Source: Gammaproteobacteria bacterium | Lineage (GTDB): Bacteria > Pseudomonadota > Gammaproteobacteria > Steroidobacterales > SZUA-146 | Reading direction: 5' to 3' | Length of the DNA stretch: 43,889 bases | Assembly (NCBI GenBank): GCA_013002925.1 | Contig: JABDLQ010000184.1 | Span: 1 to 43,889 of the forward strand | Shown here: positions 15,125-31,660 of the stretch, in pieces | Position numbering within the stretch: position 1 is the first letter of the stretch | Layout: each line of letters begins with the position of its first letter | The notes under the pieces: model-generated | What the model saw: the letters and a program-made list of their open reading frames with translations, nothing else | Database searches by the model: none | What the model was told of the DNA's origin: nothing | Program-made: the position numbers and the translations under genes

Positions 15125-15461
15125 CAGTATTTTCCTTCAATCCAGATTTTGATGGCGCCGACAAATTGCACGGAACCTGATTCAATAACAACCAGGCTTT
15201 GGAATTGTTTTTCTTATCGATCAGGCAGCAAAGGTTAACCCAAGACGCTATATGCAACAACCGGCAATCAACAAAATTTACGCAGCATATACTGGCTGGC
15301 ACGAATAATATTTTGATCATGTTTTTATTTATGAATCATAGCTTTATAAGTCCGAATATCAATACTGTAACAAGCAGACGTGTACCTTTTGTATGTTCAC
15401 GCGGACTTTTAGTGCAAAATCCTGTCATTGGCAGAATCAGCTGTCAGAGCGCGGAATCCGA

Positions 15462-16529
15462 ATGAAAGTACTTGTGGCAACGGCCACCTATCCAACTCCT
15501 GACCGGCCATCGGCCGGCATTTTTGTGCGTAATCAATTTCGGTTTTTTCGGCGTCATGCCACCCCTGACGAAACTTTCAAACTATTCAAGGTTCGTACCA
15601 CAACCCGCCGTAAATCGCGCTCATGGCCACTCGTAATCTGGGCCACGCTCAAATTTATTCCGTATTTTTTTCGGCGCTTCGACATCGTGCATATCCATTT
15701 TCTTTCGCCTCTGGCGCACGCAGCGAGAATCTACAGATTCCTGCACCCCACCACAAAGTTGATACTGACGATCCATGGCAATGATTTGCGCAAAGTGCAA
15801 AACCGCCCGCAACGGGTTAAGACCCGCTACATCAAAACACTCACGTATTTCGATGAAATCATCTTGTCCGGTGAATCATTGTTGCCCACGGTGCAAAAAC
15901 AACTGGGACTGGAACAATGTCGTATTATCTGCGCTGGCGTGGATGATCTACGCTTTCAGGTCGATCCGGATTGCAGAAAAGAATTTGACTTTATATTTGT
16001 CGGTTCATTCACGCGGGATAACGGACTTGACATCCTGATCAGTGCGCTGGAAATGCTTGAAGAGCAAGAAATACGAGCCTGCTTTGTTGGTTCAGGGCCG
16101 TTGAAAAAAGAGCTGCAGCGCGCCGGACATCATTTGAATTTGCAAATATTTGTCGAAGTACCGCAAACCCGTTTGCGACAGCTTTATAACTCTTCACGGT
16201 TTCTGGTTTTTCCGGTCCGCGGTGACAGTTTTGGACTCGTGGTGTCAGAGGCAATTCACTGTGGTGTACCGGCCATCGTCTATAGCGGTAGTGGCGCCAG
16301 TTCCCAGGTTCGCAATAACGAAACCGGGGTCACCTACAAGCCCAATACACCCGAACAACTCAGCCGCGTGTTACTTGCAGCATTTAACATGGCCGACAGC
16401 GACTATCGGGTGCTGAGTGACTGCACACGCCAGGCAAACCTGGAGTACAGCCTAAGTCATACGGGCACCCAACTGTTAAAGTTGTATCGGCAGATTGCTG
16501 CTGAAAAAGAGTTACACCCCGTTAAATAG
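15462..16529 (+). CDS. Glycosyltransferase, GT4 (GT-B fold) family
   Basis: The ORF-track ORF starts at 15393. I prefer the ATG at 15462 (MKVLVATATYP...), which is a typical GT4 N-terminus. The C-terminal half carries an E-x7-E-like region (FGLVVSEAIHCGVPAIV). Confidence 0.78.
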   Translation: MKVLVATATYPTPDRPSAGIFVRNQFRFFRRHATPDETFKLFKVRTTTRRKSRSWPLVIWATLKFIPYFFRRFDIVHIHFLSPLAHAARIYRFLHPTTKLILTIHGNDLRKVQNRPQRVKTRYIKTLTYFDEIILSGESLLPTVQKQLGLEQCRIICAGVDDLRFQVDPDCRKEFDFIFVGSFTRDNGLDILISALEMLEEQEIRACFVGSGPLKKELQRAGHHLNLQIFVEVPQTRLRQLYNSSRFLVFPVRGDSFGLVVSEAIHCGVPAIVYSGSGASSQVRNNETGVTYKPNTPEQLSRVLLAAFNMADSDYRVLSDCTRQANLEYSLSHTGTQLLKLYRQIAAEKELHPVK

Positions 16530-16618: not shown

Positions 16619-17620
16619 TTAGCGGAAGTTTTCGAGACCCACAAACGTTCCGTCGTTTCGTTCGCACAAAGCGCGCATCAATATTGCAAAGCGAATTCCA
16701 GTTGCCTGCAATTGTGGCGCCTGCGAAAATATTGTCGGAAACCCAATCGCATGAATCCGGACCCGCCGCTTACCATCCGCATCCTTGCGGTTGAGCAAAT
16801 CCACCCGATCAACAACGCTCTGAATCGAGCGACCGGAAAACTCATCGCCAAACACATACAGACTGATTTTTTTATCTGGTGCATAAAAAGCATTGATTGC
16901 TTTGGTAATACCTTCGACGGGGCTACTATTGCTGAACGAATTCCAGGTGCGCATTCGCTCCACGATGGCTTTACGCCGTGCGGGCGTATCCGGAATCCAG
17001 CGATTGGCGTATCGGCTGAACATGTAATTTCCCATGTCGTTCATAATCTGTATGCCCTTGACCTTGGGATGTACATCCAGCGTTTCTTCCATTTTGCGCA
17101 CGGCCAGATTCCATGCGTAGTTGTACATGCTGCCAGAAGTATCAATGATAAATATGATGTATTCGGAATCGACCGGAATACCAGCGACCAGTTGATTGTT
17201 GACCGATTTTGACACCTCGCTGACCTTGAGACGCTGCATTTCTTCCGTGAGATCCTGCCGGGCACTCGCCAGTTTACCGGCAATGATATTGGCAACAGAT
17301 GAATCAGCGGTAGAAGCTTTATATTCGCCGCTTATACTGGACACATCGCCTTGCAGGCGCGCCAACCGCCGCTGCTCGCGTGAAAGTTGCTGTTGCTTTT
17401 CATCGAGCTCACGATTCAGCACTTTGACTTCACCGCGAATTTCAAAAAGCTGCTGCTGCAGGTCTCTGACCTTGCCCTGATAATCGACGGTTGCCTCTTC
17501 GAGCACGATTGGTTCGGTGATTTTAACAATCACCAGCAATAAAATTATGGCTCCAAAACCGCAGGCTATCGTGTCGAGAAAGCTGAGACTTATACCTTCG
17601 ATTTCGCGTCGGTTTTTCAT
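16619..17620 (-). CDS. ExbD/TolR-like TM helix + coiled coil + vWA-domain protein (paralog 2)
   Basis: The ORF-track ORF is 16619-17680. I prefer the ATG at 17620 (MKNRREIEGISLSFLDTIACGFGAIILLLVI), which parallels the N-terminus of the upstream paralog. About 110 aa of coiled coil follows. The vWA MIDAS motif is DTSGS (IFIIDTSGSM), with a later GDE. Confidence 0.8.
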   Translation of the reverse strand: MKNRREIEGISLSFLDTIACGFGAIILLLVIVKITEPIVLEEATVDYQGKVRDLQQQLFEIRGEVKVLNRELDEKQQQLSREQRRLARLQGDVSSISGEYKASTADSSVANIIAGKLASARQDLTEEMQRLKVSEVSKSVNNQLVAGIPVDSEYIIFIIDTSGSMYNYAWNLAVRKMEETLDVHPKVKGIQIMNDMGNYMFSRYANRWIPDTPARRKAIVERMRTWNSFSNSSPVEGITKAINAFYAPDKKISLYVFGDEFSGRSIQSVVDRVDLLNRKDADGKRRVRIHAIGFPTIFSQAPQLQATGIRFAILMRALCERNDGTFVGLENFR

Positions 17621-17642
17621 AATTTGTTCACCACCACGCCGG

Positions 17643-18743
17643 TCAAGGCCAATCCCGCGCTGGACTGATAAACGAACCATCAGTCAACTGTGCCAGTCGC
17701 CAGTACATCGGTGCAGCTCGTGCGTCGCCTTCCATTGGGAACAGGATGATGTTGACTGGAATTCCGCCTGCCAGGTTCCTTAATGCACTTTCAAAATGTT
17801 GAACGCGAGCTTTTGGCGATGCAGTCTTTCGAATTGGTAGCTTGTCACCCATCGTTGGCAGTCCGTCAACCAGTAGATAGATGTTGTCGGGTGGCGGACT
17901 CATATCGCGTGACACTTGCAAAGCGCGTGACAAACTGGTGCCTTTTGACGGCACCACTTCGTCAAGCCCCTGCAATGCCGCTGTCACCTGCTCAGGGTCC
18001 GCAGCATCCAGCCAGTCTCCTGCAGTTCCGTCGACGACCGGTCGGGCCGTCTGATTAAAGGTATAAATCTGAAACCCGATTTCTTTGGGTAACTTCGCAA
18101 TCAGCCAGCGCACGCTACCGACAGCGCGCCGCCACTTGACAGAGTTCCTTTGCTCCTGTTCCGACATGTTTCGCCGCCGGATAATATTTACGATAGTTTC
18201 ATCCAGCATGCTTGCAGAACTGTCCACCAGAAACAGTACTCTCTTGCCGCCAAGCTTGAGTCCTGTCAGATACAGGCGATCACCGGCGCCGATGATACGT
18301 TGCAAATCATCACCAACGTCATCCTGTTCCTGCTGACTACCCTGCAGTCGACGGGTAGCCTCTTCAAGACTTTTGATATCTGCCTTTAGCTTTTCAATGG
18401 CCTCACGTTCAGCTAACGTCGACTGATCCAGCCGCGCCAGCTCCGTTTTTTTGTCCTCAAGCACCTGCACTATCTGTTGAATCTGTCCTGCAATTTCAGA
18501 CTGGCGGCGCGTAACTGAATCGATTGTAGTGCGCAGTTCGAATAAATTTCGTTTTGACAATTCAACACGCTTGTCCATCAGGTTAACTTCAGAAATTAAT
18601 TTAACGTTAACCTGCGCATTAGTTTCTTTGGTGGCGTGATTGATAATCATAAAAAACAATACAACGGCACCGAAGCCACAACTCATGATGTCGAGAAACG
18701 ACAAACTGAAAACTGTAGCTTTACGCTTACGCCTGGCCATCAC
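17643..18743 (-). CDS. ExbD/TolR-like TM helix + coiled coil + vWA-domain protein (paralog 1)
   Basis: The N-terminus is MMARRKRKATVFSLSFLDIMSCGFGAVVLFFMI. About 120 aa of coiled coil follows. The vWA domain has a complete MIDAS set: DSSAS (LFLVDSSASM), GTS, and D in LLVDGLPT. The C-terminal motif TDGSF is shared with paralog 2 (NDGTF). Confidence 0.8.
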   Translation of the reverse strand: MMARRKRKATVFSLSFLDIMSCGFGAVVLFFMIINHATKETNAQVNVKLISEVNLMDKRVELSKRNLFELRTTIDSVTRRQSEIAGQIQQIVQVLEDKKTELARLDQSTLAEREAIEKLKADIKSLEEATRRLQGSQQEQDDVGDDLQRIIGAGDRLYLTGLKLGGKRVLFLVDSSASMLDETIVNIIRRRNMSEQEQRNSVKWRRAVGSVRWLIAKLPKEIGFQIYTFNQTARPVVDGTAGDWLDAADPEQVTAALQGLDEVVPSKGTSLSRALQVSRDMSPPPDNIYLLVDGLPTMGDKLPIRKTASPKARVQHFESALRNLAGGIPVNIILFPMEGDARAAPMYWRLAQLTDGSFISPARDWP

Positions 18744-20112
18744 TATCTACCTGCCGGATAATCCGCACTTCAATTCCGGGGTTACCGATTTGCACGCGAT
18801 CACCAACATTCAACGCTTGTGACCCGGACACACGTTTGCCATTGACGAACGTTCCATAGGTGCTTTTATCATCTATTACAACCTGCCCACCACGCTGACT
18901 GATCAGGCAATGCTGCCGGGAGATCCCTTTAACGACTCCACTGACCTGGTGGCCCCATTGATTGGCCGGCAAAGACGTCCCGAGCATCAGGGCCTCGTCC
19001 GATACCGGATACGCCAAGGCATCAACGAGCACATGAGTCCCTGCTTGCGCTACCCGCGAGGGAGAACTCGGGATCCGCCCGGTGTCCGTTGTCACCAGGC
19101 TGGGCGACGCTTGCCACGGTCGCTGCAATATCAGCGACAAATGCTCGTCGTCATGCACAAATGCATGGCTTTCCTGCAGTATATTTTTTGGCACGGCCAG
19201 TGGCGGTAGCTGCATGACACGGAATGCGGGATTGTGCTGTAGTTGGGCCATCAGCCCCGGTAAGTTTGCTACACGGGCGCTGAACATGACCGTCGTCACT
19301 TCACCCGCCAGTTCCCGTGCAGTTATTGCATTTATCACTGGCTGATACAGTCCCGCAACGGCACCCGCCAATGTGTCAGCGCTCAGCGTCGTTTCGTATT
19401 GCTTGTCTGCACTGGAAACGACGACATTGTCAGCGCCAGCGTTCAGAGTCTCGACAATACCGGGGATAGTGTCATACAACCACTGTTCCGAAGCTGCAGT
19501 ATGCATGGGATCAAAGCGGGTTGTTTTGACAAAGGTATCAGCTATGGCACTTGCCCATCGCGCTGTAAAATCCTTGAGACCAATGTTATGAAGTTGGGCT
19601 ACATCCGTGCGCCGCAACCCGTTCTCGACGCGCAGTTCCGTGATCAACAGGTTGTGTATCGTTGCATCAACGACCAACATACGGTTTCCGGGGACCGGAT
19701 GACTGACAGCCGCGAGTGCCGCATCCACGAGGCCACGCACCGGAATTTCTGCCCGCTCACAAATTCCCAGCAGCAATCCAAGTTGTTGCTTTGAAAAGCC
19801 TGGAGGTACGCCGATGATCACGTTGTCGGTAACCGCACGATATGGCTCATAAATACTTTGCAAATGCGTGTAGACAAGGTCTGCCGGAGTCAGCATGTTT
19901 GCAAAAGTCCGCTCGAGACGCTCCAGACTCAATTGTTGCCAAAAACTGCAGTTGATTTTACGGGGATGGATACGCGCCTGGGCAAAAGCCTCTGCGCCAA
20001 TCAGTAACTGCTCGTCATCCAGAACCGCGTAGCCTGGGCTCGCCTCCGCCACATGGGTCTCGGAAGCGGCAAGCACTCCCGAGTCATTGAGTTCCAGTGC
20101 CAGCAAGGCCAT
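18727..20112 (-). CDS. Hsp70/actin-fold-like N-terminal domain fused to a C-terminal FHA domain
   Basis: The ORF-track ORF runs to 20154. I prefer the ATG at 20112 (MALLALELNDSG...), 2 nt after the stop of the motA-like gene. ALELNDSGVL, IIGVPPGFSKQQ...AEIPVRGLVDAALAAV and LVVDATIHN align in order with Hsp70 phosphate-1, the VPAYF segment and phosphate-2, but the glycines are lost. The FHA core is GISRQHCLI...STYGTFVNGKRV...GDRVQIG. Confidence 0.78.
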   Translation of the reverse strand: MALLALELNDSGVLAASETHVAEASPGYAVLDDEQLLIGAEAFAQARIHPRKINCSFWQQLSLERLERTFANMLTPADLVYTHLQSIYEPYRAVTDNVIIGVPPGFSKQQLGLLLGICERAEIPVRGLVDAALAAVSHPVPGNRMLVVDATIHNLLITELRVENGLRRTDVAQLHNIGLKDFTARWASAIADTFVKTTRFDPMHTAASEQWLYDTIPGIVETLNAGADNVVVSSADKQYETTLSADTLAGAVAGLYQPVINAITARELAGEVTTVMFSARVANLPGLMAQLQHNPAFRVMQLPPLAVPKNILQESHAFVHDDEHLSLILQRPWQASPSLVTTDTGRIPSSPSRVAQAGTHVLVDALAYPVSDEALMLGTSLPANQWGHQVSGVVKGISRQHCLISQRGGQVVIDDKSTYGTFVNGKRVSGSQALNVGDRVQIGNPGIEVRIIRQVDSDGQA

Positions 20113-20114
20113 CG

Positions 20115-20912
20115 CTAACGCACCTGCAGCTGACTGACAAGGCGTTCGTCGCAATAATGTTCGGTGTCAAGCACCAGTCGTTCCTGCACGAGGGTTAGCT
20201 GATGCAACAGGAACATCAAAATGATACTGAGCAACAACGCTATAAACGTGGAATTAAACGCCACACCAAGACTGGCGGTAACGCCAGTGATATCACCTTC
20301 TACTGCTTTGTGGGCCTGACCGAGAGCTTCACCAATACCACGAACAGTACCTATAAAACCGATCGACGGGATCGCCCAGGCAATGTATCGCACCAGCGAC
20401 AATTCAGAATCCAGTCGGTCTGATTCGCCTTCGCAAAGCGTCCGCACGACTGTCGACACATCTTGGATATTGCGAGTCGAACGAAACCGGTGCAACGCGC
20501 TCAACAGCACGCGAGGCAGCAACAAGCCCGATTGATCCACCGGGAGTTCCTGCACAGTCCGCGAATAGGAACGGGTGTCTTCCGGTAGAATACTGACCCC
20601 CTCTGCAAGTGGAATCAGATCTTTTTCAAGCATTCGTCCTTCTTTGGTCGTCAGCGCAGCCTTGTATCCCATGATGGCAAGCGCCCAAAAAAACAATATA
20701 AAACAACATTCCTGTTCAAGGTCCTTGATCAGGATATACGGTGATCGTTCCGGGACATAATTTTCGTCTGCAGCGATCTGTTCAAGTTGCTGGGCGCGGA
20801 TATCGGCAGCTTTTGGGCGTATGACCAGTGTATAAACACCATGCACAATGACAATGGCAGTAATCAGTGCAAATATCTGGTAGGCAAACTCAATCGGTAA
20901 TTTTCGGTTCAT
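20115..20912 (-). CDS. MotA/TolQ/ExbB-family proton-channel protein
   Basis: 265 aa with N-terminal TM segments. The family-defining C-terminal pair of TM helices carries AIPSIGFIGTVRGIGEALG and LGVAFNSTFIALLLSIILMFLL. Confidence 0.85.
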   Translation of the reverse strand: MNRKLPIEFAYQIFALITAIVIVHGVYTLVIRPKAADIRAQQLEQIAADENYVPERSPYILIKDLEQECCFILFFWALAIMGYKAALTTKEGRMLEKDLIPLAEGVSILPEDTRSYSRTVQELPVDQSGLLLPRVLLSALHRFRSTRNIQDVSTVVRTLCEGESDRLDSELSLVRYIAWAIPSIGFIGTVRGIGEALGQAHKAVEGDITGVTASLGVAFNSTFIALLLSIILMFLLHQLTLVQERLVLDTEHYCDERLVSQLQVR

Positions 20913-20930
20913 TCTGGACAGCCTGGATGT

Positions 20931-21155
20931 TTAGATATCAATCGGAAATGAAATTTCGGTATCAGCATTGATTTTTTCCGAGGGAACGAATCGATCCTGC
21001 CTGGTTGCTGGCGCCGTTGTGGACTCAACCTCTTCCTCTGCAGTTGTCACGGCGGATTCATCTTCCTGACTCTCATCCTGCGCCGCGCTCAAAAGCGCAA
21101 ATGAAAGGCTGACAACTCCCAGCACGGTTTTTACGATCAGACCAAAATCTTTCAT
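20931..21155 (-). CDS. Small acidic secreted protein (74 aa)
   Basis: It has a signal peptide (VLGVVSLSFALLSAAQ) followed by an E/D/T-rich mature part ending in ISFPIDI. Its start is about 3 nt after the upstream stop. There is no homology-based call. Confidence 0.55.
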   Translation of the reverse strand: MKDFGLIVKTVLGVVSLSFALLSAAQDESQEDESAVTTAEEEVESTTAPATRQDRFVPSEKINADTEISFPIDI

Positions 21156-21158
21156 GAA

Positions 21159-23222
21159 TTACTCCAAATATCGACCAATCCGGAAGCCGAGATCAGGACG
21201 TCCCTGATCGGATGAGTCACGGTAAGTCGGCCGTAGCTCGCTGATTCTCGAATGTTGCCAGCTGGAGCCCCGAATCACATAGGCCGGCTGTGCCGGTGTA
21301 TTCGTTGCGAACGCGCTGGATCTGTAAATATCCTGAGTCCATTCAGAAACATTTCCCGCCATATCATAAAGGCCTGCAGGATCAGCGGCAAAATTTGCCA
21401 CCGGTGATGTGGCCGGAAAACCATCCACATAATTATCTATGACAGCACTTGTCAGTCCGAGTGCAGTGCGATCTGCGAAATTTCCAAAATCTGTCGGGGG
21501 CGTTACATCCTCGCCCCAGGGAAACAGAGTTAACTCGCGGTTTCCGGAAAAGCGCGCGGCCCAGGCCCATTCCGCCTCGCTCAGCAGGCGATAACCTATG
21601 TTTTTTGGCTCCGCCGGTTGCATGCGCCCACCCGCCCTGACATAGGCGGGCGGCAGGCCCTCCTGTTGACTCAGCCAGTTGCAGTATTGTGCTGCATCAT
21701 CCCAGGTCACGTTAACCACCGGATGATCGGGCGCATCCAGCGACACGCTAAAAAACATTCCGGAAGAATGTTCCGGGCGGAAGGCTTTAAATCGCTCGTT
21801 GGTTACTTCCTGTGTGCCGATGTAATACATGCGCGTGAGTTCAACTTTGCGCAATTGCTCATTGGATCGTCGGCCACGCACGCGTCTTGACGCACCCATC
21901 GAAAAAGCATGGGGCCTCATCAATATCAGCGTTTGACCGTCAGCAGTCTGAATTTTCGCCTTGCGTGCAAGCTCCGCTTCACGCGCCTCTTCCAGCGTCA
22001 GCAGTTTGACTGCAATCTCCTGCGGGGCTGCAGGTTTTGGTAATACGGTAATGAACGCCGGCGCGTACCCGGCGGCGCGAATTTCGAGTTGCTGATCACG
22101 CGCAGGAAGCTCGAGTTGTGCACCCGCCAGGCCAATCTGTTCGCCTGCGCTCCATACGCTTGCGCCAGATGGCGCATTAATCACGGTAATCAACCCTACT
22201 TGCGGGACCAGGGACCATTCCAGGTTGATATCTTCGTTGCTCGCTACTTTGATCGTTTCACTTATCTTGTCATACCCCACTTTCGTGACAGCAAGGGTAT
22301 AACTTTGTCCAGGCGGCAATTTCAACGTGCGCGGAGTGAGCCCGTAGTAACGCCCATCGATACTGATTGCCGCAGCCGCAGGTGTGGTTGACACTGTGAT
22401 GGATCCATCGGCTTTTTTCATCACGATGTCAGTCAATTCAAGGCGTTGCTCTGCCGCCAGGTTAAGCGTTTTAAACCAGCGTTTGTAGCCTGGCGCCCGC
22501 AGTGAAAGCCGATGCTCACCGGCAAGAATCTCAAACGTACCGGGAGTGTGACCGACAAGCGTTTCGCCAACATAGACGTTGGCAGTCACGGGCAGCGTTG
22601 AAATTTGCACGTCCGCCCAGTTTGGCCGTAAATCAACGGTTATCGTTTGGGATCGGCCAAGACCTTCTACCGTGACGTTGCCTGTCCAGGGCTGAAACCG
22701 CGGAGCTTCCACCTGCACAGGATAGTCGCCTGCGGGCACTTCGACAGTTCCATGCATATCCTTCAGGGTGACTTCATCGCCGACCCGTATCACCGCATTC
22801 GTGACATTGTCAGCAAACTCGAAATTCAGCTTGCCGGGAAGCTTTTTCAGCGTCAATTGAAATTTTTGAATGGCTTCGTCGTCGATCCGCAATGATTCGT
22901 GCAATGGATAGTAACCGGCCTTGTTTGCACTGACCTCAATTTCCCCCGGCAGCACAAGATAATGATCCTTCCAGGCGATTTGCAGCAACCCCGCTGAAAT
23001 ATTCAAGGTGTCAGCCCCGGGCTCGACCTGCACCCAGACAGACCGCGCTGCAAACACAAACCACAGCGCAAACAGCAGCGCTGCCAGCAAAGATAACGCC
23101 ATAACTTTTTTTGCACTCCAGCGCTTCTTCCGGACTTGCTCGGGAGCGCTTGGGGAATAATCAACGACTTCGATCGGACTAGCATGATCGGCCCCACCTG
23201 ATGTGGTGGCATCTGCCGGCAT
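21159..23222 (-). CDS. Membrane-anchored periplasmic protein: about five PEGA-like repeats + C-terminal FGE/SUMF1 (formylglycine-generating-enzyme-like) domain
   Basis: The N-terminal anchor is KKVMALSLLAALLFALWFVFAA. Repeated PEGA-type strands are KAGYYP, APRFQPW, APGYKRW, KVGYDKI and AAGYAP. FGE-domain motifs are NVTWDDAAQYCNWLS, YRLLSEAEWAWAAR, FPWG, GNVSEWTQD, IRGSSW and LGFRI. Confidence 0.85.
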   Translation of the reverse strand: MPADATTSGGADHASPIEVVDYSPSAPEQVRKKRWSAKKVMALSLLAALLFALWFVFAARSVWVQVEPGADTLNISAGLLQIAWKDHYLVLPGEIEVSANKAGYYPLHESLRIDDEAIQKFQLTLKKLPGKLNFEFADNVTNAVIRVGDEVTLKDMHGTVEVPAGDYPVQVEAPRFQPWTGNVTVEGLGRSQTITVDLRPNWADVQISTLPVTANVYVGETLVGHTPGTFEILAGEHRLSLRAPGYKRWFKTLNLAAEQRLELTDIVMKKADGSITVSTTPAAAAISIDGRYYGLTPRTLKLPPGQSYTLAVTKVGYDKISETIKVASNEDINLEWSLVPQVGLITVINAPSGASVWSAGEQIGLAGAQLELPARDQQLEIRAAGYAPAFITVLPKPAAPQEIAVKLLTLEEAREAELARKAKIQTADGQTLILMRPHAFSMGASRRVRGRRSNEQLRKVELTRMYYIGTQEVTNERFKAFRPEHSSGMFFSVSLDAPDHPVVNVTWDDAAQYCNWLSQQEGLPPAYVRAGGRMQPAEPKNIGYRLLSEAEWAWAARFSGNRELTLFPWGEDVTPPTDFGNFADRTALGLTSAVIDNYVDGFPATSPVANFAADPAGLYDMAGNVSEWTQDIYRSSAFATNTPAQPAYVIRGSSWQHSRISELRPTYRDSSDQGRPDLGFRIGRYLE

Positions 23223-25517
23223 CTATATGCGCTCCCGGCACATGATTTCATACCGGACGTCTGTCTCCCCGGGTGCCAACGCAATCGTCACGCGGACATC
23301 GCGAAACCCGGCACGTGTACCGACAGCGGTATATTCTCCGGGTCGCAATTCCAGCGTTCGACTGTTGAACGTGCCCATTTTACCCACCCGGTACACGGTC
23401 ACGTCAGTAGCCCCATCGGAGTTCAACGTCACGGTTACCGGCTGCCGGGTAAGCGCCATCAGGTTGCGTAGTTCTGCGGCTTGAGCATCCAGCCTGGCAT
23501 CACCGGCGTACGGTTGCAGACGAGTGAGCAATGCTTGCGCGCTGTTGTACGCACTGGCACTGGTCAATCGCATGGGTTCGCCAAGCAATGTTTGCAACTC
23601 TTCTTCCACATCTGCACGATTGCGCACACGGCGCACACCGTCACGGGCGCTTTGCAACGTGGGGTCCTGCTCCAGCGCCGCCTTGTACTGGCGCTCCGCT
23701 GCGCGCCAATCACCCCGTCCTTCCAGCACGCGCGCCTCCCCTTCCAGCCGATTGACGTCCTGCAATCGCACTGCGGTATCAAGCTGTTGCAACGCTTCTG
23801 TCACCTCACTGGCACCCGGGCGCAGTGAGCGCGCTCGTTCAAATGCACGGCGTGCGCGATCAAAATCAGATTTTTCGAGTGCTGCAAAACCTGCTGACAT
23901 ATGTCCGGAAAACGCACGTCTGGCACGCTGCCGCTGGATTCTGTTAATACCGTCGGTGGCGGCCTGCCACTGTGCATCCAGTTCCCCGGCTTGTTGATAG
24001 GCCGTCAGCGCCGCATCGTAGTCACCTGACTGCTCCAGTTCTTCCGCGCGGTCAACCAGAGCCAGTACTTCGTCAAGATTGGCAGCGCGTTCGAGACCCG
24101 TCTGAGCGCGCTCTGATGTCGCATCGATTTGCAGTACCGTCGAATATTTTTGATCTGCCAGAGCAGCATCTCCTGCAGCGATTGCGGCATCCGCTTCAGC
24201 CAGTGTGTCGGTCACAATCGTATCTGCGATGTCGCTCAGGTCCGCAGCGATGTCATGGCCCTCTGAGTATTTTGCCAGCGCTTGCTCATATTTTTTCTGC
24301 CGAAACAGTTGATCGCCAGCGATCGCCGCTTGCTTGATCTGATCAAAGCGCTCGGGTGCCCATACGATGGCCTTTTTGTCGTCGAGATAAAACTGTTTAT
24401 CGAGCAACTGTTCGAGCATTGACTCCGCGTCTTTTCGCATTTTGGCCTGCTGCGCCAGCTTCCATGGTTCAATATCAGTTGCCCGAGGTGGGCTCTGGGT
24501 GGCAACAGGTGCTGGCGTCACCGCAGAAGTGGGGGCATCGGCAGATGCGGTTACGGGTTCACGTTCGCCGACCCACCGAGGCACAACATAAAATAATGCA
24601 ACGAGTCCAATGAACCCATAGAGCAGGAGCAATGGCACCAGTCGTTTATGGCGTGTTGGCGGCGGCGCGGCGGCGCCGTGCGAAGCAGTGGAATTATTAC
24701 CCGGGTCAATCACCTCGATTCTGTCGTCTTCGGCTGTATCAAAGACAAACTCATCCGGGGGTACGGTCACATTGCCTTGCTCATCCAGTGCCTGACGCAA
24801 TGCGTCCGCAACAATTGCCATCCGGGCGGGACGCTGCTGAGCATCCGGATGCATGAGTTGCTCAACAAGTTCAGAAAGCGTGGCCCCCAGGTTCAGCGGA
24901 GGGCCTTCCTCATCCGGCCATCGACCTTCGGCCAATCGATACAACGCAACACCGAACGCATACATATCGTCACCGGGCTCGGGCGGCTCACCGTCACGTT
25001 GCGCCGGACTCATACTGCGCGAAGAACCACCACTGCGAAGCCCGGCGGCTCCCGATTCAGAGGCAATGCCAAAATCAATCAAGCGGGTATGTTTACGCTC
25101 GTCGAACAAAAAATTGCTCAGCTTTATATCGCGATGCACGATGCCCTGTTGATGTACATGGTCAAGTGCCTCTGCAATCTGGATTAGCGCCGGGAGAAAT
25201 TGTGCGTGGGGTCTGCCCGCGAGTTTTTCCAGGCTGCCACCGCTGAGATATTCGAGAGTGAGATAGGTAAAATTGTCATCAGCATGACACTCAAACGCAC
25301 GCACAATACCGGAATGAACACAACGCCCACACTGAGCAAATTCATTTTTTAAGAGGTTAACGCCGGTCACATCATCGCTGTTCGCGATTTTTATGGCCAC
25401 CCGCGACTTGAGCTGGTCATCCCGGGCAAGCCACACCTGGCAATGGGCGCTGGTGTGTAATAGCGCGAGAAGTGTATAACGGTCAGAAATTCGACGACCT
25501 TTCGCAAGAGGTTCCAT
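23223..25517 (-). CDS. Transmembrane Hanks-type Ser/Thr protein kinase with periplasmic TPR-like repeats and a C-terminal PEGA domain
   Basis: Kinase motifs are VAIK, HRDIKLSNFLF and DFGIA. The Gly-rich loop is degenerate (LHTSAHCQVW). The TM segment is LVPLLLLYGFIGLVALFYVV. Helical repeats rich in A/L/Q/Y follow. The C-terminus reads LELRPGEYTAVGTRAGFRDVRVTI (PEGA-like). Its stop TAG is directly followed by the next ATG. Confidence 0.85.
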   Translation of the reverse strand: MEPLAKGRRISDRYTLLALLHTSAHCQVWLARDDQLKSRVAIKIANSDDVTGVNLLKNEFAQCGRCVHSGIVRAFECHADDNFTYLTLEYLSGGSLEKLAGRPHAQFLPALIQIAEALDHVHQQGIVHRDIKLSNFLFDERKHTRLIDFGIASESGAAGLRSGGSSRSMSPAQRDGEPPEPGDDMYAFGVALYRLAEGRWPDEEGPPLNLGATLSELVEQLMHPDAQQRPARMAIVADALRQALDEQGNVTVPPDEFVFDTAEDDRIEVIDPGNNSTASHGAAAPPPTRHKRLVPLLLLYGFIGLVALFYVVPRWVGEREPVTASADAPTSAVTPAPVATQSPPRATDIEPWKLAQQAKMRKDAESMLEQLLDKQFYLDDKKAIVWAPERFDQIKQAAIAGDQLFRQKKYEQALAKYSEGHDIAADLSDIADTIVTDTLAEADAAIAAGDAALADQKYSTVLQIDATSERAQTGLERAANLDEVLALVDRAEELEQSGDYDAALTAYQQAGELDAQWQAATDGINRIQRQRARRAFSGHMSAGFAALEKSDFDRARRAFERARSLRPGASEVTEALQQLDTAVRLQDVNRLEGEARVLEGRGDWRAAERQYKAALEQDPTLQSARDGVRRVRNRADVEEELQTLLGEPMRLTSASAYNSAQALLTRLQPYAGDARLDAQAAELRNLMALTRQPVTVTLNSDGATDVTVYRVGKMGTFNSRTLELRPGEYTAVGTRAGFRDVRVTIALAPGETDVRYEIMCRERI

Positions 25518-25585: not shown

Positions 25586-26815
25586 TTAAAGATCTTCCAG
25601 GTGTCTGAGCTGGGGCTGAGGCATTTCACTGTCCTGCACTGTCAGACCGGTTTCTGATTCATAAATTTCTCTGAGCAGCCGCCGCCATTTGTCGTATTGC
25701 TGGTCAGCCGTTCCGGTCAGTTCAATGGTACGGCCCTCTACCTCAACGAGCATCGGCTGCACCTCCTGGACGAAAGAGTCCGCCAGTTCCTTGAGCGCAA
25801 CAGCATGCAAATTGGTCTGTTTGCTGAGGTCATAACCACCTTTCACCAGATTACCCCCCACCACCATAGCGGCACGACCGCCATAGTATTCGGCAGCATT
25901 GTCCGCTTTGTTTTGCATCACGGCGCCACCAACCGCTACCAGAACACCAGCGGCCATGGTTAATCGGGACGTTCTCACCAACTCGCGCAGTGCGATGGTC
26001 TCCTCATAACTGTAACGCCGCCAGTCCTCGTAGGGCTGAGACATTTTATTGTGGAAGCCCTCGTAATGTTCATCAAGTATGTCGATGAATGCGTATTCAC
26101 GGTCGCGAATTTTGCCTACGCGACCCAACATTGGGTCATCTTCCGCTGGCAATCGTTTGATATCCACATACCCGTTGTCATCAACTTCATAATATTCAGA
26201 GTACGCATAAGGAGAAATTTCGGCGGCAAATTTAAGCTTGGAAATGGTGCGAATCCGTTCCAGTTCGCCGGCATCCAACTCACGGCGAAGCGCCAGCAGG
26301 TCGTTGGAAATATTATTGTACAGGTCCTGAAAAGGCTCTTCATTGCCGGCAACCTCTTCCTCATAGGACATGCCCGACGCAGAGTCCGAGTAACGTTTTT
26401 CCAGCCATAAGCGCCCACTGGCATCACTTGCACGAACATCGACGACTAATACCTCGCCGTCGGACTTAATGATGTCACCACCAATGAGCAAATCGACCGC
26501 TTCGGTGGGTCGCGGCAAAATTCGCACTGCCCCCCAGTTTTCAGTTGCTTCCAGCGTGCGGCGTAACTCGTAGGGTATGTAGGCGCTTTCAGCATTGCGT
26601 ACCCTGGCGTTTATAAACTTTTTCTCGGCTTTTTTCTGATCTTCGGGCACGCCAGGATCGAACATCAGAATTCCGATATCCAACAATTGCTCTTCTGGCA
26701 ACACTTCGGCCGCTTTTATGGCAGGCTCGCTGGAAACGTTGACAACCGTGGTAGATACGCACCCCGTCGTTGCTGCAAGCAGCAAAATAAAAATTAGACT
26801 GTTAGTTTGTCTCAA
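25586..26815 (-). CDS. Lipoprotein of unknown function (409 aa)
   Basis: The signal peptide plus lipobox is LLLAATTGC. It has an apparent TTG start, with AGGAG 12 nt upstream. A Gly/Ala-rich hydrophobic patch (MAAGVLVAVGGAVM...MVVGGNLVKGG) lies near the C-terminus. Confidence 0.65.
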   Translation of the reverse strand: MRQTNSLIFILLLAATTGCVSTTVVNVSSEPAIKAAEVLPEEQLLDIGILMFDPGVPEDQKKAEKKFINARVRNAESAYIPYELRRTLEATENWGAVRILPRPTEAVDLLIGGDIIKSDGEVLVVDVRASDASGRLWLEKRYSDSASGMSYEEEVAGNEEPFQDLYNNISNDLLALRRELDAGELERIRTISKLKFAAEISPYAYSEYYEVDDNGYVDIKRLPAEDDPMLGRVGKIRDREYAFIDILDEHYEGFHNKMSQPYEDWRRYSYEETIALRELVRTSRLTMAAGVLVAVGGAVMQNKADNAAEYYGGRAAMVVGGNLVKGGYDLSKQTNLHAVALKELADSFVQEVQPMLVEVEGRTIELTGTADQQYDKWRRLLREIYESETGLTVQDSEMPQPQLRHLEDL

Positions 26816-26911: not shown

Positions 26912-28498
26912 TCAATTACCGGTCGCATTGCGGTAATTACGATACTCCTCCCAAAGCCTGGCACGTAACACCGGATCGGCTTCCGCCTGCGCCGCTTCGC
27001 GCAGTTGCCGGGCCACGACATCATCACCCTGCGGATCCGGTAAGTCCCCCGGGTCCACTGGTGCGTTATTGCCGGTTCCCCGCATACCGTTACTGTCTTC
27101 TTCACCGCCCGATGTACGCGCAGTGCGTTGCGTGCCGGTTTCATTTGTGGGATCACCCTGGCCCATCGCTACCGAGCCACTGCCGCCCGGTTCCGGTGAT
27201 CCCGCAGGATCGAAGCCTTCGGTTCCGCCACCCATTTGTCCATCGCCTTTGCGCATGGCCTGCCGCTCTTCTGACAATTCACCGTCAAAATCTGCCAGCG
27301 TACGGTCCAACTCTCCCTCCAGCTCACCCACTTCGCGGCGCGTGCTGCGGCGGCTGGCTGGCAGATTTTGTGTGTCAGAACGACGCGCCAGTACCTCGCG
27401 GGCACTCTCATATTCCGGGGAATTAAAGTCCGGCAATCCGCCCTGTTCGATCACACTGGCGAGGACCTCGACAGACATCTCGAGAAACTCCACCATTGCT
27501 TCCATATCCGTGAACACCAGCATGCTGTCATCGTTCGCATCCGCCGTATCTTCCGGAATATAGCCAAGCTCGACTGCTGCTGTAATCAAGGCGTTGCGAG
27601 CAGCCATCAGATCTTCCGCCGCTTTGCTTAGCGCTTCCCGCGCAGTTTGTACCTCTTCACCATCATCCGGCGCAGCTTTAACTTCAGGATCAAGATCGGC
27701 GCTGACGCTTTCCAGTCGCTCACTTCCTGATTTCAAATCGTCACTGGCCCGGCGCTCACGTTTGCGTTGTTCTTTTGCTGCACGCCGTTCTGCCCGACTT
27801 TGCTTCTGTTGGGCAGCAGCCTCAGCACTGGCTGCGCTTTCCGCCTCAAGCGCTTCCTGTGCCTCTTTCACAGATGCCGCGGCTCTTGCCACTGCCGCGG
27901 CCGCCTGGGCCACCGGATCTGCGCTACCGCCGGCCGCAGGCTCTGCAAATGGATCGTAATTTGGCTCGTCACTGCTGCTCGCAGATGCTTCCGCCTGCTC
28001 TTCGCTGGCGTCATCTGTCGACTCTCCGCCTTCATTCTTATCACGCTCGGCGATCTTTTCCCGCGCCCGTGCCATCGCCACGGCCGCCCGGGATACTGCA
28101 TCTGCAGCGCTGGCGACCGCCTCACCCACTTCAGCCAGTTCCTGATCACCACTGGAGGGGTCATTGGCTGATTCCCTGGCATCGTTTCCGCTCTGCCCCT
28201 GCTCCTGCGATTTGTCCCCTTGATTGGCCGTGCGTTCCCCCTGGCTTGAAGAGCTTGAATCCGACGAGCTGCTGTCACCACTCTGGCTCGATGGCGTAGA
28301 TGGGGAGCTTGACGGAGAGCTTGATGGCGAACTGGATGGAGCGCTTGGTGGAGCGCTTGATGGTGAGCTGCTGGGACTGGAACTTGGCGACGGCATGCCG
28401 CTACCCGGCTTTGACGTCTGAGTCTTGCACCCCGTAGATATCAACAAGAATGTGGCAAGCACAGCTGCGAAGATTCCGCGCGTTATCAGACGATGCAT
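26912..28498 (-). CDS. Low-complexity lipoprotein (Ser/Pro-rich linker, then acidic Ala/Glu-rich helical regions)
   Basis: The ORF-track ORF runs to 28753. I prefer the ATG at 28498 (MHRLITRGIFAAVLATFLLISTGC, signal peptide plus lipobox), with AGGAGA upstream. Then comes SSSPSSSPSSAPPSAPSSSPSSSPSSSPSTPSS, followed by long A/E/D-rich sequence. The conserved-looking C-terminus is DDVVARQLREAAQAEADPVLRARLWEEYRNY. Confidence 0.65.
   Translation of the reverse strand: MHRLITRGIFAAVLATFLLISTGCKTQTSKPGSGMPSPSSSPSSSPSSAPPSAPSSSPSSSPSSSPSTPSSQSGDSSSSDSSSSSQGERTANQGDKSQEQGQSGNDARESANDPSSGDQELAEVGEAVASAADAVSRAAVAMARAREKIAERDKNEGGESTDDASEEQAEASASSSDEPNYDPFAEPAAGGSADPVAQAAAAVARAAASVKEAQEALEAESAASAEAAAQQKQSRAERRAAKEQRKRERRASDDLKSGSERLESVSADLDPEVKAAPDDGEEVQTAREALSKAAEDLMAARNALITAAVELGYIPEDTADANDDSMLVFTDMEAMVEFLEMSVEVLASVIEQGGLPDFNSPEYESAREVLARRSDTQNLPASRRSTRREVGELEGELDRTLADFDGELSEERQAMRKGDGQMGGGTEGFDPAGSPEPGGSGSVAMGQGDPTNETGTQRTARTSGGEEDSNGMRGTGNNAPVDPGDLPDPQGDDVVARQLREAAQAEADPVLRARLWEEYRNYRNATGN
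28290..28390. repeat. Imperfect 12-bp tandem repeats encoding the (S-S-S/A-P)n linker of the lipoprotein
   Basis: Units on the + strand, from 28305 onward: GAGCTTGACGGA, GAGCTTGATGGC, GAACTGGATGGA, GCGCTTGGTGGA, GCGCTTGATGGT. Confidence 0.65.
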
Positions 28499-28817: not shown

Positions 28818-29498
28818 GTGTGCGACAGCGTGCCATGCTCATCGAAACAATTTTATCGCACCGGGCTGATAGTCTGGCTGCTTGTCTGTGTTAGCGGATG
28901 CGCTTCATCCAAAGACAAGCCGACGCCGCTGGATATCAACAGCAGCGTTCCGGTACCACTCGTAGAAAAAATGCCGGTTACCGCAAGGGTTGTGTTTTCA
29001 AAGGCACTTAACGAGTACGTGACCGTAGAGACACCTACTCGTGGCCGTTCCTGGGAAATCCGGCTGGGTAACACCAATCGCCGCGTATTTGAGGACATTC
29101 TCAACAGCCTGTTTGATGAGGTACTGGTGGCAGAAGGCACCGATGCGTCCGACAATTATGAGGCCGAGGCCGATTTTACCATCGTCCCGTCTGTTGATGA
29201 TTATGCAATGCTGACGTCAGGAGAATCCGGGAGCAAGTTTTATGCCGTCTCCATGCGTCATTTCCTTGACATTTATCGTGGCGACGGTGATCTTGCAGGA
29301 CGACTGGAAATAAATAGCTATGGGCGCAGCAGAGCCGCGCGCTTTACGAACGGCAGCGCAGAGATTGACCTGGCGACCGATGAGGCATTCCGGGATCTGG
29401 CGGTAACATTGATCGTGGAACTGCCTGATAAATTAAAGCAGGCCGGCTTGATCTCCGCAGCGTCACCAGCTGCGGCCGACCCCATCGAAAGCGAGTAA
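28818..29498 (+). CDS. Lipoprotein of unknown function (226 aa)
   Basis: GTG start (an alternative in-frame GTG is at 28830). The signal peptide plus lipobox is LLVCVSGCASS. No enzymatic motif was recognised. Confidence 0.65.
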   Translation: MCDSVPCSSKQFYRTGLIVWLLVCVSGCASSKDKPTPLDINSSVPVPLVEKMPVTARVVFSKALNEYVTVETPTRGRSWEIRLGNTNRRVFEDILNSLFDEVLVAEGTDASDNYEAEADFTIVPSVDDYAMLTSGESGSKFYAVSMRHFLDIYRGDGDLAGRLEINSYGRSRAARFTNGSAEIDLATDEAFRDLAVTLIVELPDKLKQAGLISAASPAAADPIESE

Positions 29499-29507
29499 CC
29501 CACGACT

Positions 29508-30179
29508 ATGAAGATGCCAACGAATTCACGAAACCTTATTCTCAGAACGATGCTTGTTGGCGCATTTTTAGTGCTCTGCTCGTGCGTCACGTCTCGCGTT
29601 GAATATGCATTTGAAAACACCATCGAAACCAATGTTGAAGATGGTGTGGTGCTGCTGACCAGAAGGGATAATGCGGAGTCTGAAACATCAGACAAATTTA
29701 TTGATTGCGTCAAAGGCAAACTCCGGGGTGGTGCCAATGGCATAGAACTCATGGACGAACAGATTTTTTTAGACAGTTTGTTTCCCTGGTTTGAACCGCG
29801 CGTTGCCCCATTGACCGCCGATGCCCTTCCGGATCTGCTGGGCAAACCCGGCGTAGCCAGTAAAGTAGAAGAAGCCGGCGTGCGTTACGTAATGTGGCTT
29901 GGCGGCGCTATGGAAGTATCAGACGGCGGCGGCTCGGTTAGCTGTGATATTAATGTCGGGTGTTTTGGCTTCACGTGGTGGGAAAATGGCGCGACCTATG
30001 AAGCGGCGATCTGGGACTTGAAAAACATGGAAAGCACCGGGGTGATCAGCGCCGATGTGACCGGCCGCTCCTATTTGCCTGCAATTATCATTCCGATCCC
30101 ACTCATCGCACCCACCAAATCGACTGCCTGTGATGACCTGGCGGATGAACTGAAAAAACAATTTGTATCTAACTCCTGA
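29508..30179 (+). CDS. Putative lipoprotein of unknown function (223 aa)
   Basis: It starts 9 nt after the previous stop. The signal peptide with lipobox-like motif is FLVLCSC. There are several Cys residues in the mature part. Confidence 0.65.
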   Translation: MKMPTNSRNLILRTMLVGAFLVLCSCVTSRVEYAFENTIETNVEDGVVLLTRRDNAESETSDKFIDCVKGKLRGGANGIELMDEQIFLDSLFPWFEPRVAPLTADALPDLLGKPGVASKVEEAGVRYVMWLGGAMEVSDGGGSVSCDINVGCFGFTWWENGATYEAAIWDLKNMESTGVISADVTGRSYLPAIIIPIPLIAPTKSTACDDLADELKKQFVSNS

Positions 30180-30208: not shown

Positions 30209-31660
30209 TCACGGCCGGTTACCGGTTGATTCTTCATTAGTATCCGCGTCCGTCTCAGGCGCTGGAGCCACAGCTACGCCATCGGTATTGCCGTCTAATA
30301 ACTTTGCGGCATCGTCTTCCTCGTTATCGGACACTACTGCCGCCTGACGTTTTGCAAGAATCGCATCCCTGGCACTGTCAAAATTATATTTTATCGTTTT
30401 TATGACATTATCCGTCGCGACTGGCACGCCATCGAGAATACGGGGGCGGTAACGGGACGACCTGACATTGGAGCGCAATGCGGTCATTAACTGGCTTGAA
30501 CCCACATCGTCTTTTATGACGTTCAGATCGCGCACGCGACCGTGTTTGTCTACAGTGAAAGAGAAAACAATTTCAAGGTTCCCCGGCGGCAGTCGCAGGA
30601 TCTGGCTGGGCCGCCAGTTGGCCACCGGATGTGCCTCAAACTCAAGCTCGAGCGGTTCATCAAACATACTATCCACATCGAGCGGTGTTTCGCGCACAGA
30701 ATTCAACTTGTTCCAGGCCTGCTCGTAGGCCTGCTGGGCGCGTCCGCGATGACCGCCACGCACATGCCAGTCACCCAGTCTGGCCCACGCACGAGCGACA
30801 TCCGCCATGTCAGGATATTCCTGGTTTTCATACAGGCTGATGACACGTTTCAGGGCGCGTACACCCTCCCCTGACATAACCCGGCGGTCGCGTGGAGTTT
30901 GTAAAAAACTGTTCGCTATATCGTTGAGAGGGCCTGCCAGCCGAATATCATTCGGCCCATAAGCGGCTTCCAGAATGGCCAGAGCACGACGGTATTGCTT
31001 ACGCGCGTGGTCTTCCCGTTGCATGATCATGTGCCATCTGGCCATGTGTTTGAGTGCCGGCGTTAACTGCGGCGTGTTGCCATAGTTCTCCTCATTTGCA
31101 TGCAGCAAAAAGCGCTGTTCACGGTCTGCTGCCGACAAATCTTCCGTCCAGGCATAGATCTCAGTCAGCCGATTCGATATGTTGGTTTGCACCAGGTTAA
31201 ATACACCCTCGTTACGATGAGTAATATCCTTGGCGCGCAGGTACACGCTGAGTGCTGCGTCATACTGCTTCAGGGTACTCAGGGTATTGCCGAGACCTTC
31301 CAGCGGTGCGCGTAATTCGCTGGCAAAGACCCCGATGTTTTCCTCCAGCAGCTTGATCGCGCGTTCAAAATGAGAGGCAGATTTCAATAACTGGTCGAGA
31401 CCGAAATATACGTGACCAAGACATGTAATCGGCGCTACCAGGTTCACCGACCCTTCACCCTCCGCTGCAGCCACAGCAGCGTGCCACTGGTCGCAGTGTT
31501 CACCGGCTTCTTCAAAACGATTTTCTTCGAGCAGATCGGCCGCCCGCGTAAACGCACTGACACGGTCATCGGAGGCCGCAGGTACACTCTCTGCCAGCGC
31601 ATGTGAACTACCGAAGATCACTATCGGCAGCAGCCGAATCATCAGGTTAATTTTTACCAT
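30209..31660 (-). CDS. Periplasmic TPR-repeat protein with a TonB C-terminal-like domain
   Basis: It has a cleavable-looking signal peptide (IRLLPIVIFGSSHALA). TPR-like helical repeats span aa ~40-330. The C-terminus (LEIVFSFTVDKHGRVRDLNVIKDDVGSSQLMTALRSNVRSSRYRPRILDGVPV) resembles the TonB_C fold. An acidic tail follows. Confidence 0.7.
   Translation of the reverse strand: MVKINLMIRLLPIVIFGSSHALAESVPAASDDRVSAFTRAADLLEENRFEEAGEHCDQWHAAVAAAEGEGSVNLVAPITCLGHVYFGLDQLLKSASHFERAIKLLEENIGVFASELRAPLEGLGNTLSTLKQYDAALSVYLRAKDITHRNEGVFNLVQTNISNRLTEIYAWTEDLSAADREQRFLLHANEENYGNTPQLTPALKHMARWHMIMQREDHARKQYRRALAILEAAYGPNDIRLAGPLNDIANSFLQTPRDRRVMSGEGVRALKRVISLYENQEYPDMADVARAWARLGDWHVRGGHRGRAQQAYEQAWNKLNSVRETPLDVDSMFDEPLELEFEAHPVANWRPSQILRLPPGNLEIVFSFTVDKHGRVRDLNVIKDDVGSSQLMTALRSNVRSSRYRPRILDGVPVATDNVIKTIKYNFDSARDAILAKRQAAVVSDNEEDDAAKLLDGNTDGVAVAPAPETDADTNEESTGNRP

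Follow-up and report, generated by a model that had tools for sequence, protein, structure and literature searches.

The window analyzed here, 43,889 nt of contig JABDLQ010000184.1 (assembly GCA_013002925.1), carries on its minus strand, at positions 16619-25517, a cluster of seven genes that encode a TolQ/ExbB/MotA-family channel, two membrane-tethered vWA proteins and a set of signalling and periplasmic domains. The locus is a real and widely conserved cell-envelope gene cluster. An initial annotation, made from the sequence alone, had read it as an undescribed motor in which the channel works with the two vWA proteins under phospho-threonine control, perhaps in a Zorya-like response; its anatomy of seven genes proved correct, almost every domain call holds and the inferred core of channel and vWA partners fits the sequence evidence, whereas the undescribed nature of that core, the general phospho-threonine control and the Zorya-like role are not supported. 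The genes are listed below in the order in which they are read.

23223..25517, minus strand: Ser/Thr kinase domain (residues 1 to ~250), transmembrane (TM) segment, periplasmic TPR and C-terminal beta-sandwich; 764 aa
21159..23222, minus strand: N-terminal TM anchor, three or more PEGA domains and C-terminal FGE-sulfatase-like domain; 687 aa
20931..21155, minus strand: small acidic secreted protein with apparent signal peptide, non-conserved acidic linker and conserved C-terminus; 74 aa
20115..20912, minus strand: TolQ/ExbB/MotA-family channel (PF01618); 265 aa
18727..20112, minus strand: Hsp70 nucleotide-binding domain (NBD)-like domain of the ASKHA type (residues 1 to ~335) followed by an FHA domain (~360-455); 461 aa, cytoplasmic
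17643..18740, minus strand: vWA1, with TM helix containing Asp17 (FSLSFLD), helical stalk and vWA domain (167-365); 365 aa
16619..17620, minus strand: vWA2, with short basic N-terminus, TM helix containing Asp16 (LSFLD), helical stalk and vWA domain; 333 aa

All seven open reading frames (ORFs) run in the same direction and are closely joined. The kinase stop codon is followed without a gap by the start of the PEGA-FGE gene (...ATA TAG ATG CCG...), as had been described. Elsewhere neighbouring genes are separated by 3, 18, 2 or 22 nt, and one pair overlaps by 14 nt, when three gene starts are corrected from homolog lengths, namely those of the NBD-FHA gene (20112, 461 aa), vWA1 (18740, 365 aa) and vWA2 (17620, 333 aa). 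The listed ORF of vWA2 extends to 17680, and its homologs begin at MKNRRE. The gene call in the collection for 18727-20154 on the minus strand gives a protein of 259 aa only (P0241), whereas homologs give 461 aa, with a start 2 nt past the channel stop, so that the Hsp70-NBD-like half may escape automatic annotation.

The vWA protein is encoded in at least 593 genomes in a scan of one genome per species, and a protein library clustered at 50% identity contained 520 clusters at E <= 1e-30. Gene order was read from the 80 best loci in species-representative genomes, with protein identities of 25-65%. It hardly varies and runs from two lipoprotein genes through the genes for the TPR protein (kinase optional), the PEGA/FGE protein, the small protein, the TolQ-like channel and the NBD protein (FHA optional) to vWA1 and vWA2. 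The cluster is thus syntenic in about 80 species-level genomes, which, with the profile matches given below, answers the conditions on synteny and profile support under which the initial annotation would have been refuted. More distant members retain the same order; in one locus (L007) the lipoprotein-kinase-FGE block is inverted and lies downstream of the motor block. Because this order is conserved across loci, the unit can be seen to begin at two lipoprotein genes (26912-28498 and 25586-26815) upstream of the seven, and hence to reach to about 28498, with linked genes up to 31660 or 33228. The record titles name Woeseiaceae, Halieaceae, Pseudomonadales, Arenicellales, Thiotrichales and Lysobacterales, as well as Desulfobacterales, Desulfatiglandales, Myxococcales, Vicinamibacteria and Thermoanaerobaculia, corresponding to the labels Gammaproteobacteria, Desulfobacterota, Myxococcota and Acidobacteriota. 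Among the carriers are Gammaproteobacteria that abound in marine and sediment settings, and at least two Steroidobacteraceae in culture.

The channel and the two vWA proteins

The channel protein matches MotA_ExbB (PF01618) with E 1.8e-13 and 50.8 bits, above the Pfam cutoff of 22.9, and a profile built from 23 channel orthologs matches the TolQ structure in the PDB (E 0.003), in agreement with its first assignment to the MotA/TolQ/ExbB family. Two threonines, T189 and T222, are invariant in 23 of 23 sequences and align to T145 and T178 of Escherichia coli TolQ. Close relatives of the channel number in the thousands and are mainly from marine Gammaproteobacteria. No match to ExbD, TolR, MotB or an OmpA-like domain was found in any of the operon genes with Pfam and NCBIfam.

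The two vWA proteins are full-length paralogs (hhalign probability 99.6%, E 2.5e-24, 21% identity over 317 columns), and both are present in all 82 loci compared. VWA_2 in Pfam is matched by vWA1 (E 5.7e-7) and only at E 0.009 by vWA2, whose assignment is supported through the paralogy. The residues of the metal ion-dependent adhesion site (MIDAS) are D173, S175, S177, T268 and D292 in vWA1, and DTSGS with S230/S232 and D259 in vWA2; the full set (DxSxS, Thr or Ser, Asp) is invariant in 60/60 vWA1 and 22/22 vWA2 sequences. The same sequences all carry the aspartate of the TM helix (D17 in vWA1, D16 in vWA2), and the TM sequence, FSLSFLDIMSCGFGAVVLFF, contains no His and lacks the SHLS/His motif. 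An AlphaFold2 (AF2) model of vWA1 shows an unbroken helix from residue 13 to 104, continuing from the TM segment, and a second helix from 109 to 148, followed by the vWA domain with a predicted local distance difference test (pLDDT) score above 90. The listed Foldseek matches of this model were mostly vWA domains, including BatB, an aerotolerance-related vWA protein and the anthrax toxin receptor. Paralogy, invariant residues, model and Foldseek matches together bear out the description of two paralogs with a TM aspartate, a stalk and a vWA domain with intact MIDAS. The pairing of the channel with two Asp-bearing vWA partners fits the invariant TM Asp, T189 and T222 of the channel, the lack of an ExbD, TolR or MotB gene and the long helical stalk.

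Further components of the operon

In the protein encoded between the channel and vWA1, Pfam detected the FHA domain (E 1.1e-13), and this was the only domain seen in Pfam and PDB sequence searches, which gave no match for the Hsp70-like part, including the Hsp70 profile (PF00012). An AF2 model of the NBD-FHA protein, made with 77 homologs, reached a pLDDT of 92.5; when this model was searched with Foldseek, 50 of the 50 listed matches were Hsp70-family chains (DnaK, BiP, Hsc70, Hsp110) or NBDs (best E 1e-16, TM-score up to 0.72), which bears out at the level of fold the proposed fusion of an Hsp70-like domain to FHA. The Hsp70-like domain conserves E7, D10, D130 and D149 and has a family-specific invariant motif, R199-F-D-P-x-H-x-A-x-x-E-Q, and the FHA domain retains G, S-R-x-H, S and N. 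The gene is absent from eight loci (L028, L043, L044, L055, L071, L034, L052 and L069), in which the channel gene is directly followed by vWA1.

The first gene of the seven encodes a protein with Pfam matches to Pkinase (3e-27) and TPR and a TM segment at about residues 296-315, as read by eye, and was correctly recognized as a TM Ser/Thr kinase with TPR. The PEGA domain also attributed to it gave no Pfam match; its C-terminus shows only a weakly matching CarboxypepD_reg-like beta-sandwich (E 0.021). The window kinase has K43, HRD128-130, N135 and DFG148-150. Of 35 orthologous kinase domains, 26 retain the catalytic Asp, and about one in four has substituted catalytic residues; pseudokinase drift is possible. 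The presence of kinase and FHA domains was scored by single-sequence BLAST in the 53 loci where both genes are complete, and ten proteins scored as negative were cross-checked with Pfam, which ruled out divergence and confirmed the negatives. Both domains occur in 26 loci, the kinase only in 6, FHA only in 7 and neither in 14, an association with Fisher p ~0.001 without phylogenetic correction. The kinase domain is missing in about 21 of these loci (~40%), where the orthologs keep TM and TPR, and FHA in about 20. The kinase and FHA domains are accessory and tend to be present or absent together. Phospho-threonine control, as first proposed, is not a general property of the system, since the kinase is found in only ~60% of loci and FHA is often missing too.

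The second gene was annotated as a multi-PEGA protein ending in an FGE domain, and Pfam agrees (PEGA 5.4e-38 over three stretches; FGE-sulfatase 1.8e-38). Catalytic FGE has a pair of cysteines near the C-terminus (Cys336/Cys341 in the human enzyme). The last 60 residues, where this pair would be expected, are devoid of cysteine in the window protein and in 60 of 66 orthologs, and on this feature the protein was not classed as a catalytic FGE.

The 74-aa protein was described as acidic and secreted, which its composition and leader support: a hydrophobic leader, taken by eye as a signal peptide, is followed by a remainder with 14 D/E against 3 K/R and an isoelectric point (pI) of 4.05. It ends in FVPSEKINADTEISFPIDI-COOH (20934-20990, minus strand). 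The consensus over the last ~19 residues, F-x-P-[ST]-E-x-[IVL]-x-x-D-x-x-[VI]-x-[FY]-P-x-D-I-COOH, is near-invariant and the rest of the protein is variable. In 64 of 70 loci the full motif immediately precedes the channel gene, and in 68 of 70 a relaxed pattern does; six-frame translations totalling 2.5 million residues contain only 66 copies of the full motif. This tail is a candidate for a dedicated ligand peptide.

The genes upstream of the seven are the following.

25586..26815, minus strand: 409-aa lipoprotein of no known family; lipobox ...TTGC, +2 Val
26912..28498, minus strand: acidic lipoprotein with lipobox ISTGC, ~528 aa counted from MHRLITRG; its gene heads the operon
28673-28701, minus strand: promoter-like site TTAACA-17-TATAAT, 11/12 by consensus match only, ~175 nt before the likely start of the first lipoprotein gene
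28818..29498, plus strand: lipoprotein LPa of no known family, 226 aa; divergent from the operon here
29508..30179, plus strand: lipoprotein LPb of no known family, 223 aa; always adjoining LPa
30209..31660, minus strand: secreted TPR protein with TonB_C-like C-terminal domain, 483 aa
31660..33228, minus strand: M48 metallopeptidase lipoprotein; linked in 7 of 84 loci, membership uncertain

The 409-aa lipoprotein gene was found in 51 of 82 loci; where loci extend so far upstream, most have it immediately before the kinase/TPR gene. A lipobox is present in 36 of 50 orthologs, and the +2 residue is never Asp. The acidic lipoprotein consists largely of an acidic, Ser/Pro-rich low-complexity region of ~450 residues (pI 4.3), and its conservation across phyla is limited to the C-terminal ~40 residues (DDVVARQLREAAQAEADPVLRARLWEEYRNYRN). 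The long ORF at 26912-28753 on the minus strand is probably this 528-aa lipoprotein with its start at 28498. Scans for terminators and promoters were uninformative, except for the one strong promoter-like site listed above. The linked genes further upstream occur in two arrangements, either divergent as in the window or built into the operon as its opening and closing genes; in other loci LPa directly follows vWA2 on the operon strand. The TonB_C domain of the TPR protein scores 19.6 bits in the window and 33.7, 28.7 and 26.2 bits in three orthologs (cutoff 24.6). LPa, LPb and the TPR-TonB_C protein probably belong to the system, with linkage read from those loci that extend to these genes, as most of the loci compared end before them. 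The M48 lipoprotein gene and the start of the TPR-TonB_C gene share one base.

Relation to known systems

The core arrangement and a 5:2 mechanism for it have been proposed before. A study from 2025 (PMC12204202; Mol Biol Evol, section 8 and Fig. 4c-d) describes a TM-tethered vWA protein ("TPH-vWA") encoded beside a tolQ-like gene, with no tolR or exbD, in Proteobacteria, with Idiomarina loihiensis as the seed and the function given as unknown. The TPH-vWA proteins are mostly heterologous pairs with a proton-binding Asp in a trans-pore helix that faces a ring of Thr in AlphaFold3 (AF3) models, and the pair was modelled as the dimer of a 5:2 motor (PMC12204202). The present locus is therefore not of an undescribed kind, contrary to the initial annotation. 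Both paralogs here are single vWA domains tethered by an N-terminal TM segment; they are encoded next to a tolQ-like gene without tolR, exbD or motB, as in ~75 other loci, and they form a heterologous vWA pair with an Asp in the pore helix, no SHLS/His and a Thr ring in the channel. The likeness is one to the published criteria, of which all the testable ones apply, and the I. loihiensis seed was compared by its description only; no Idiomarina-named entries were found in cluster look-ups of distant representatives.

The window locus differs from that description (PMC12204202) in adding a kinase, FHA, FGE and Hsp70-like domains and the small-protein motif, and the cluster is found here also in genomes labelled Desulfobacterota, Myxococcota and Acidobacteriota. 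The text of PMC12204202 contains no mention of a kinase, a sulfatase or FGE, Hsp70 or phosphorylation, and its sole match to "FHA" is the unrelated name FhaC. It is likewise silent on the upstream and linked lipoproteins, the TPR-TonB_C-like protein, the conserved gene order and the accessory status of kinase and FHA. Literature searches found no other paper on the full domain combination, and both the peptide motif and the full set of 9-12 genes seem not to have been described before. NCBIfam has no equivalog for any component, with matches to GldK, TagH, GltG and TolQ far below their cutoffs.

The Tol-Pal and Ton systems (TolQ5-TolR2-TolA and ExbB5-ExbD2-TonB) share with the locus a PF01618 channel with both pore threonines, a single-TM partner with an Asp, outer-membrane lipoproteins and a TonB_C-like protein nearby. 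Here, however, the periplasmic domain of TolR/ExbD is lacking, as are a TM-anchored TolA or TonB with SHLS, TolB, Pal and a TonB-dependent receptor, and the B subunit itself bears a long stalk and a vWA head. The earlier list of features missing from the window holds for PP2C, with no match, and for the type VI secretion system (T6SS), with no above-threshold match, in the ORFs scanned, and needs amending in its TonB-related part because of the TonB_C-like protein at 30209-31660. In the GldKLMN (PorKLMN) machinery of type IX secretion (T9SS) and gliding, an FGE-like gene likewise lies immediately upstream of a 5:2-type motor with a dimeric subunit that spans the periplasm, a functional analogy. 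The GldK model scores only 92.5 bits against a cutoff of 350, though, GldL, GldM and GldN are absent, and the FGE-like protein here is anchored in the inner membrane (TM and PEGA) rather than being a lipoprotein.

A possible trans-envelope machine and its alternatives

Motors of the 5:2 type, driven by ion flow, are at work in flagella, in nutrient import, in keeping the outer membrane intact, in gliding, in type 9 secretion and in phage defence. The locus probably encodes a self-contained trans-envelope machine around a motor of this type. In the proposed mechanism five TolQ-like copies would form the channel, and the vWA1/vWA2 heterodimer would take the place of TolR, ExbD or MotB, with its two Asp-bearing TM helices in the pore. 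The long stalks would carry two metal-binding MIDAS heads into the periplasm, to a depth of ~15 nm if fully extended (estimated from helix lengths in the model), and the passage of protons would turn or pull the dimer, with its heads exerting force on a ligand bound to them. Among possible ligands or partners, the likeliest would be the periplasmic and outer-membrane components encoded in the same cluster, i.e. the small acidic protein (FPxDI-COOH), the acidic lipoprotein and the 409-aa lipoprotein, and further the membrane-anchored PEGA/FGE-like protein, here taken as a non-catalytic binding module, and the TPR proteins, including that with a TonB_C-like domain. The ligand residues bound by MIDAS sites are acidic, and the PxDI-COOH tail and the acidic lipoprotein may for this reason be the prime ligand candidates. 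PEGA domains are described as associating with peptidoglycan (PMC7159879) and could supply a wall anchor as in stators of the MotB and ZorB type. The Hsp70-NBD-like protein would be the constant cytoplasmic partner, to which FHA and kinase could add an optional phospho-dependent switch. As a role, outer-membrane tethering or the handling of surface structures is favoured over defence.

More tentatively, and with more doubt than conviction, the 9-12 genes may be seen as one complete and previously unassembled machine, in which a proton-driven pentamer would move the vWA dimer, whose heads would capture the secreted FPxDI-COOH peptide and/or outer-membrane lipoproteins, with the Hsp70-NBD-like protein as a cytoplasmic clutch that is optionally gated by kinase and FHA. 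If this were true, it would represent a new functional class of 5:2 motor beside flagella, Ton, Tol, Agl-Glt, T9SS and Zorya, with outer-membrane tethering, surface adhesion or gliding, and export as candidate roles. With a stator plug subunit that is itself a long-stalked head of the adhesion type, force would be delivered across the periplasm in a new manner. The present analysis expands the two-gene-family observation of 2025 into a list of parts, comprising four lipoproteins, a dedicated peptide whose tail is invariant, an FGE-like scaffold taken as non-catalytic, adaptors with TPR and TonB_C-like domains, a cytoplasmic partner of Hsp70-NBD-like fold and an optional switch of kinase and FHA. 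The system is directly testable, given its presence in at least 593 species-level genomes, including those of cultured Steroidobacteraceae.

The joint presence or absence of the kinase and FHA domains would also be expected if the locus were mainly a periplasm-sensing Ser/Thr phospho-relay, in which the FGE-like protein and lipoproteins activate the kinase, the FHA protein switches the output, and the TolQ-like and vWA proteins are effectors or sensors. The model for such a relay is the threonine phosphorylation pathway (TPP) of the H1-T6SS of Pseudomonas aeruginosa (PpkA, Fha1, TagR, TagQ, PppA), which shares the domain set of TM kinase, FHA, periplasmic FGE-like protein, outer-membrane lipoproteins and vWA. 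We consider this unlikely, as the kinase domain is gone from ~21 and FHA from ~20 of the 53 complete loci while all other genes are kept, and about a quarter of the remaining kinase domains have substituted catalytic residues. The periplasmic part of the kinase is TPR and not vWA, and FHA is fused to an Hsp70-NBD-like domain. In the operon and flanking ORFs scanned there was no match to PP2C/PppA and none above threshold to T6SS families, the only T6SS-related one being a sub-threshold match of the FHA domain alone to TagH in NCBIfam (31.7 bits, cutoff 120). A slightly less probable alternative is that the vWA proteins act independently of the channel, like BatA and BatB, with adjacency to the TolQ-like gene reflecting shared regulation and not a complex. 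Foldseek did list BatB and an aerotolerance-related vWA protein, and sequence profiles show no homology to ExbD; this structural similarity is the sole link to the Bat operon, none of whose genes (MoxR, DUF58, BatA-D) turned up in the operon or its flanks. The TM Asp and the pair of pore Thr are strictly invariant across phyla, which would otherwise be hard to explain and favours an ion pathway over channel-independent vWA proteins; the tolQ-like gene has no other candidate B subunit in the operon, and the linkage is extremely tight, in the loci studied here and in PMC12204202.

Least probable of all, and in our view very improbable, is a Zorya-type anti-phage or conflict system, in which the MotA-like channel and a non-canonical B subunit would sense perturbation of the envelope and trigger a response. 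Zorya does combine a MotA-family channel with an unusual B subunit, and there are a weak match to ZorA2 (E 0.0093), a match of the adjacent GT4 glycosyltransferase to GT4-conflict (4.5e-8) and matches of the kinase to the PD-T4-6 and MAD6 models, which concern the generic kinase domain only. PADLOC, on the other hand, gave nothing beyond ZorA2 and these generic kinase matches, with no model match for ZorB, ZorC, ZorD or a nuclease or helicase effector, and the peptidoglycan-binding domain of ZorB and the cytoplasmic tail of ZorA are lacking (the channel has 265 aa). At protein identities of 25-65%, several phyla keep the same gene order, which patchy defence islands do not, the flanking genes are housekeeping genes that differ between loci, with GT4 adjacent in the closest relatives only, and the components are mostly periplasmic or lipoprotein scaffolds. 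The Zorya-like or conflict response raised in the initial annotation thus finds no support, and the assignment to defence was rejected. Membership of the T6SS-TPP, Zorya, Bat and T9SS systems each fails on defining features.

Several observations weigh against the reading as an ion-driven trans-envelope motor, or against parts of it. The N-terminal and TM segments of the vWA proteins gave no ExbD, TolR or MotB match, either in Pfam at E up to 10 or with a profile of 22 N-termini against the PDB; only chance matches such as NDUFB4 were returned, and membership of the ExbD/TolR family was rejected. Nor was an ExbD (PF02472)/TolR or OmpA-like periplasmic domain found in these proteins, whose periplasmic part consists of the stalk and vWA. 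As the profile searches were empty, the "ExbD-like" label can be kept for topology and function, as an analogy, and not as demonstrable family membership. The stalk in the vWA1 monomer model has a pLDDT of only 50-70, and the 5:2 assembly is proposed by analogy and from the AF3 model of 2025 (PMC12204202). Stoichiometry, force generation, ligand identity and physiological role are what we infer from these comparisons, and this tempers above all what is said of ligand and phenotype. In the Hsp70-like domain the glycine-rich phosphate loops (DxGTT, DLGGGT) are not kept and read LELNDSG and VVDATIHN, which makes nucleotide binding uncertain, such that ATP may not bind. The FHA domain lacks the canonical Arg after Gly (G-R motif), and in the window kinase the Gly-rich loop at residues 19-29 is without glycine (LHTSAHC, compared with the ortholog consensus LGxGG), and phospho-signalling may therefore be weak or vestigial. 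Finally, the taxon labels behind the phylum-level spread are taken from the titles of metagenome-assembled genome records.

Of the genes around the cluster in the window, the GT4 glycosyltransferase with the GT4-conflict match in Pfam lies at 15393-16529 on the plus strand, convergent with the operon, and is probably outside the system because only the closest relatives (L003, L085) have it next to the operon. At 2611-5817, also on the plus strand, a 1068-aa protein is encoded that combines a hydrophobic segment at the N-terminus with a very long coiled coil rich in Glu and Gln, with weak matches only, to ATG16, Filament and DUF3450.

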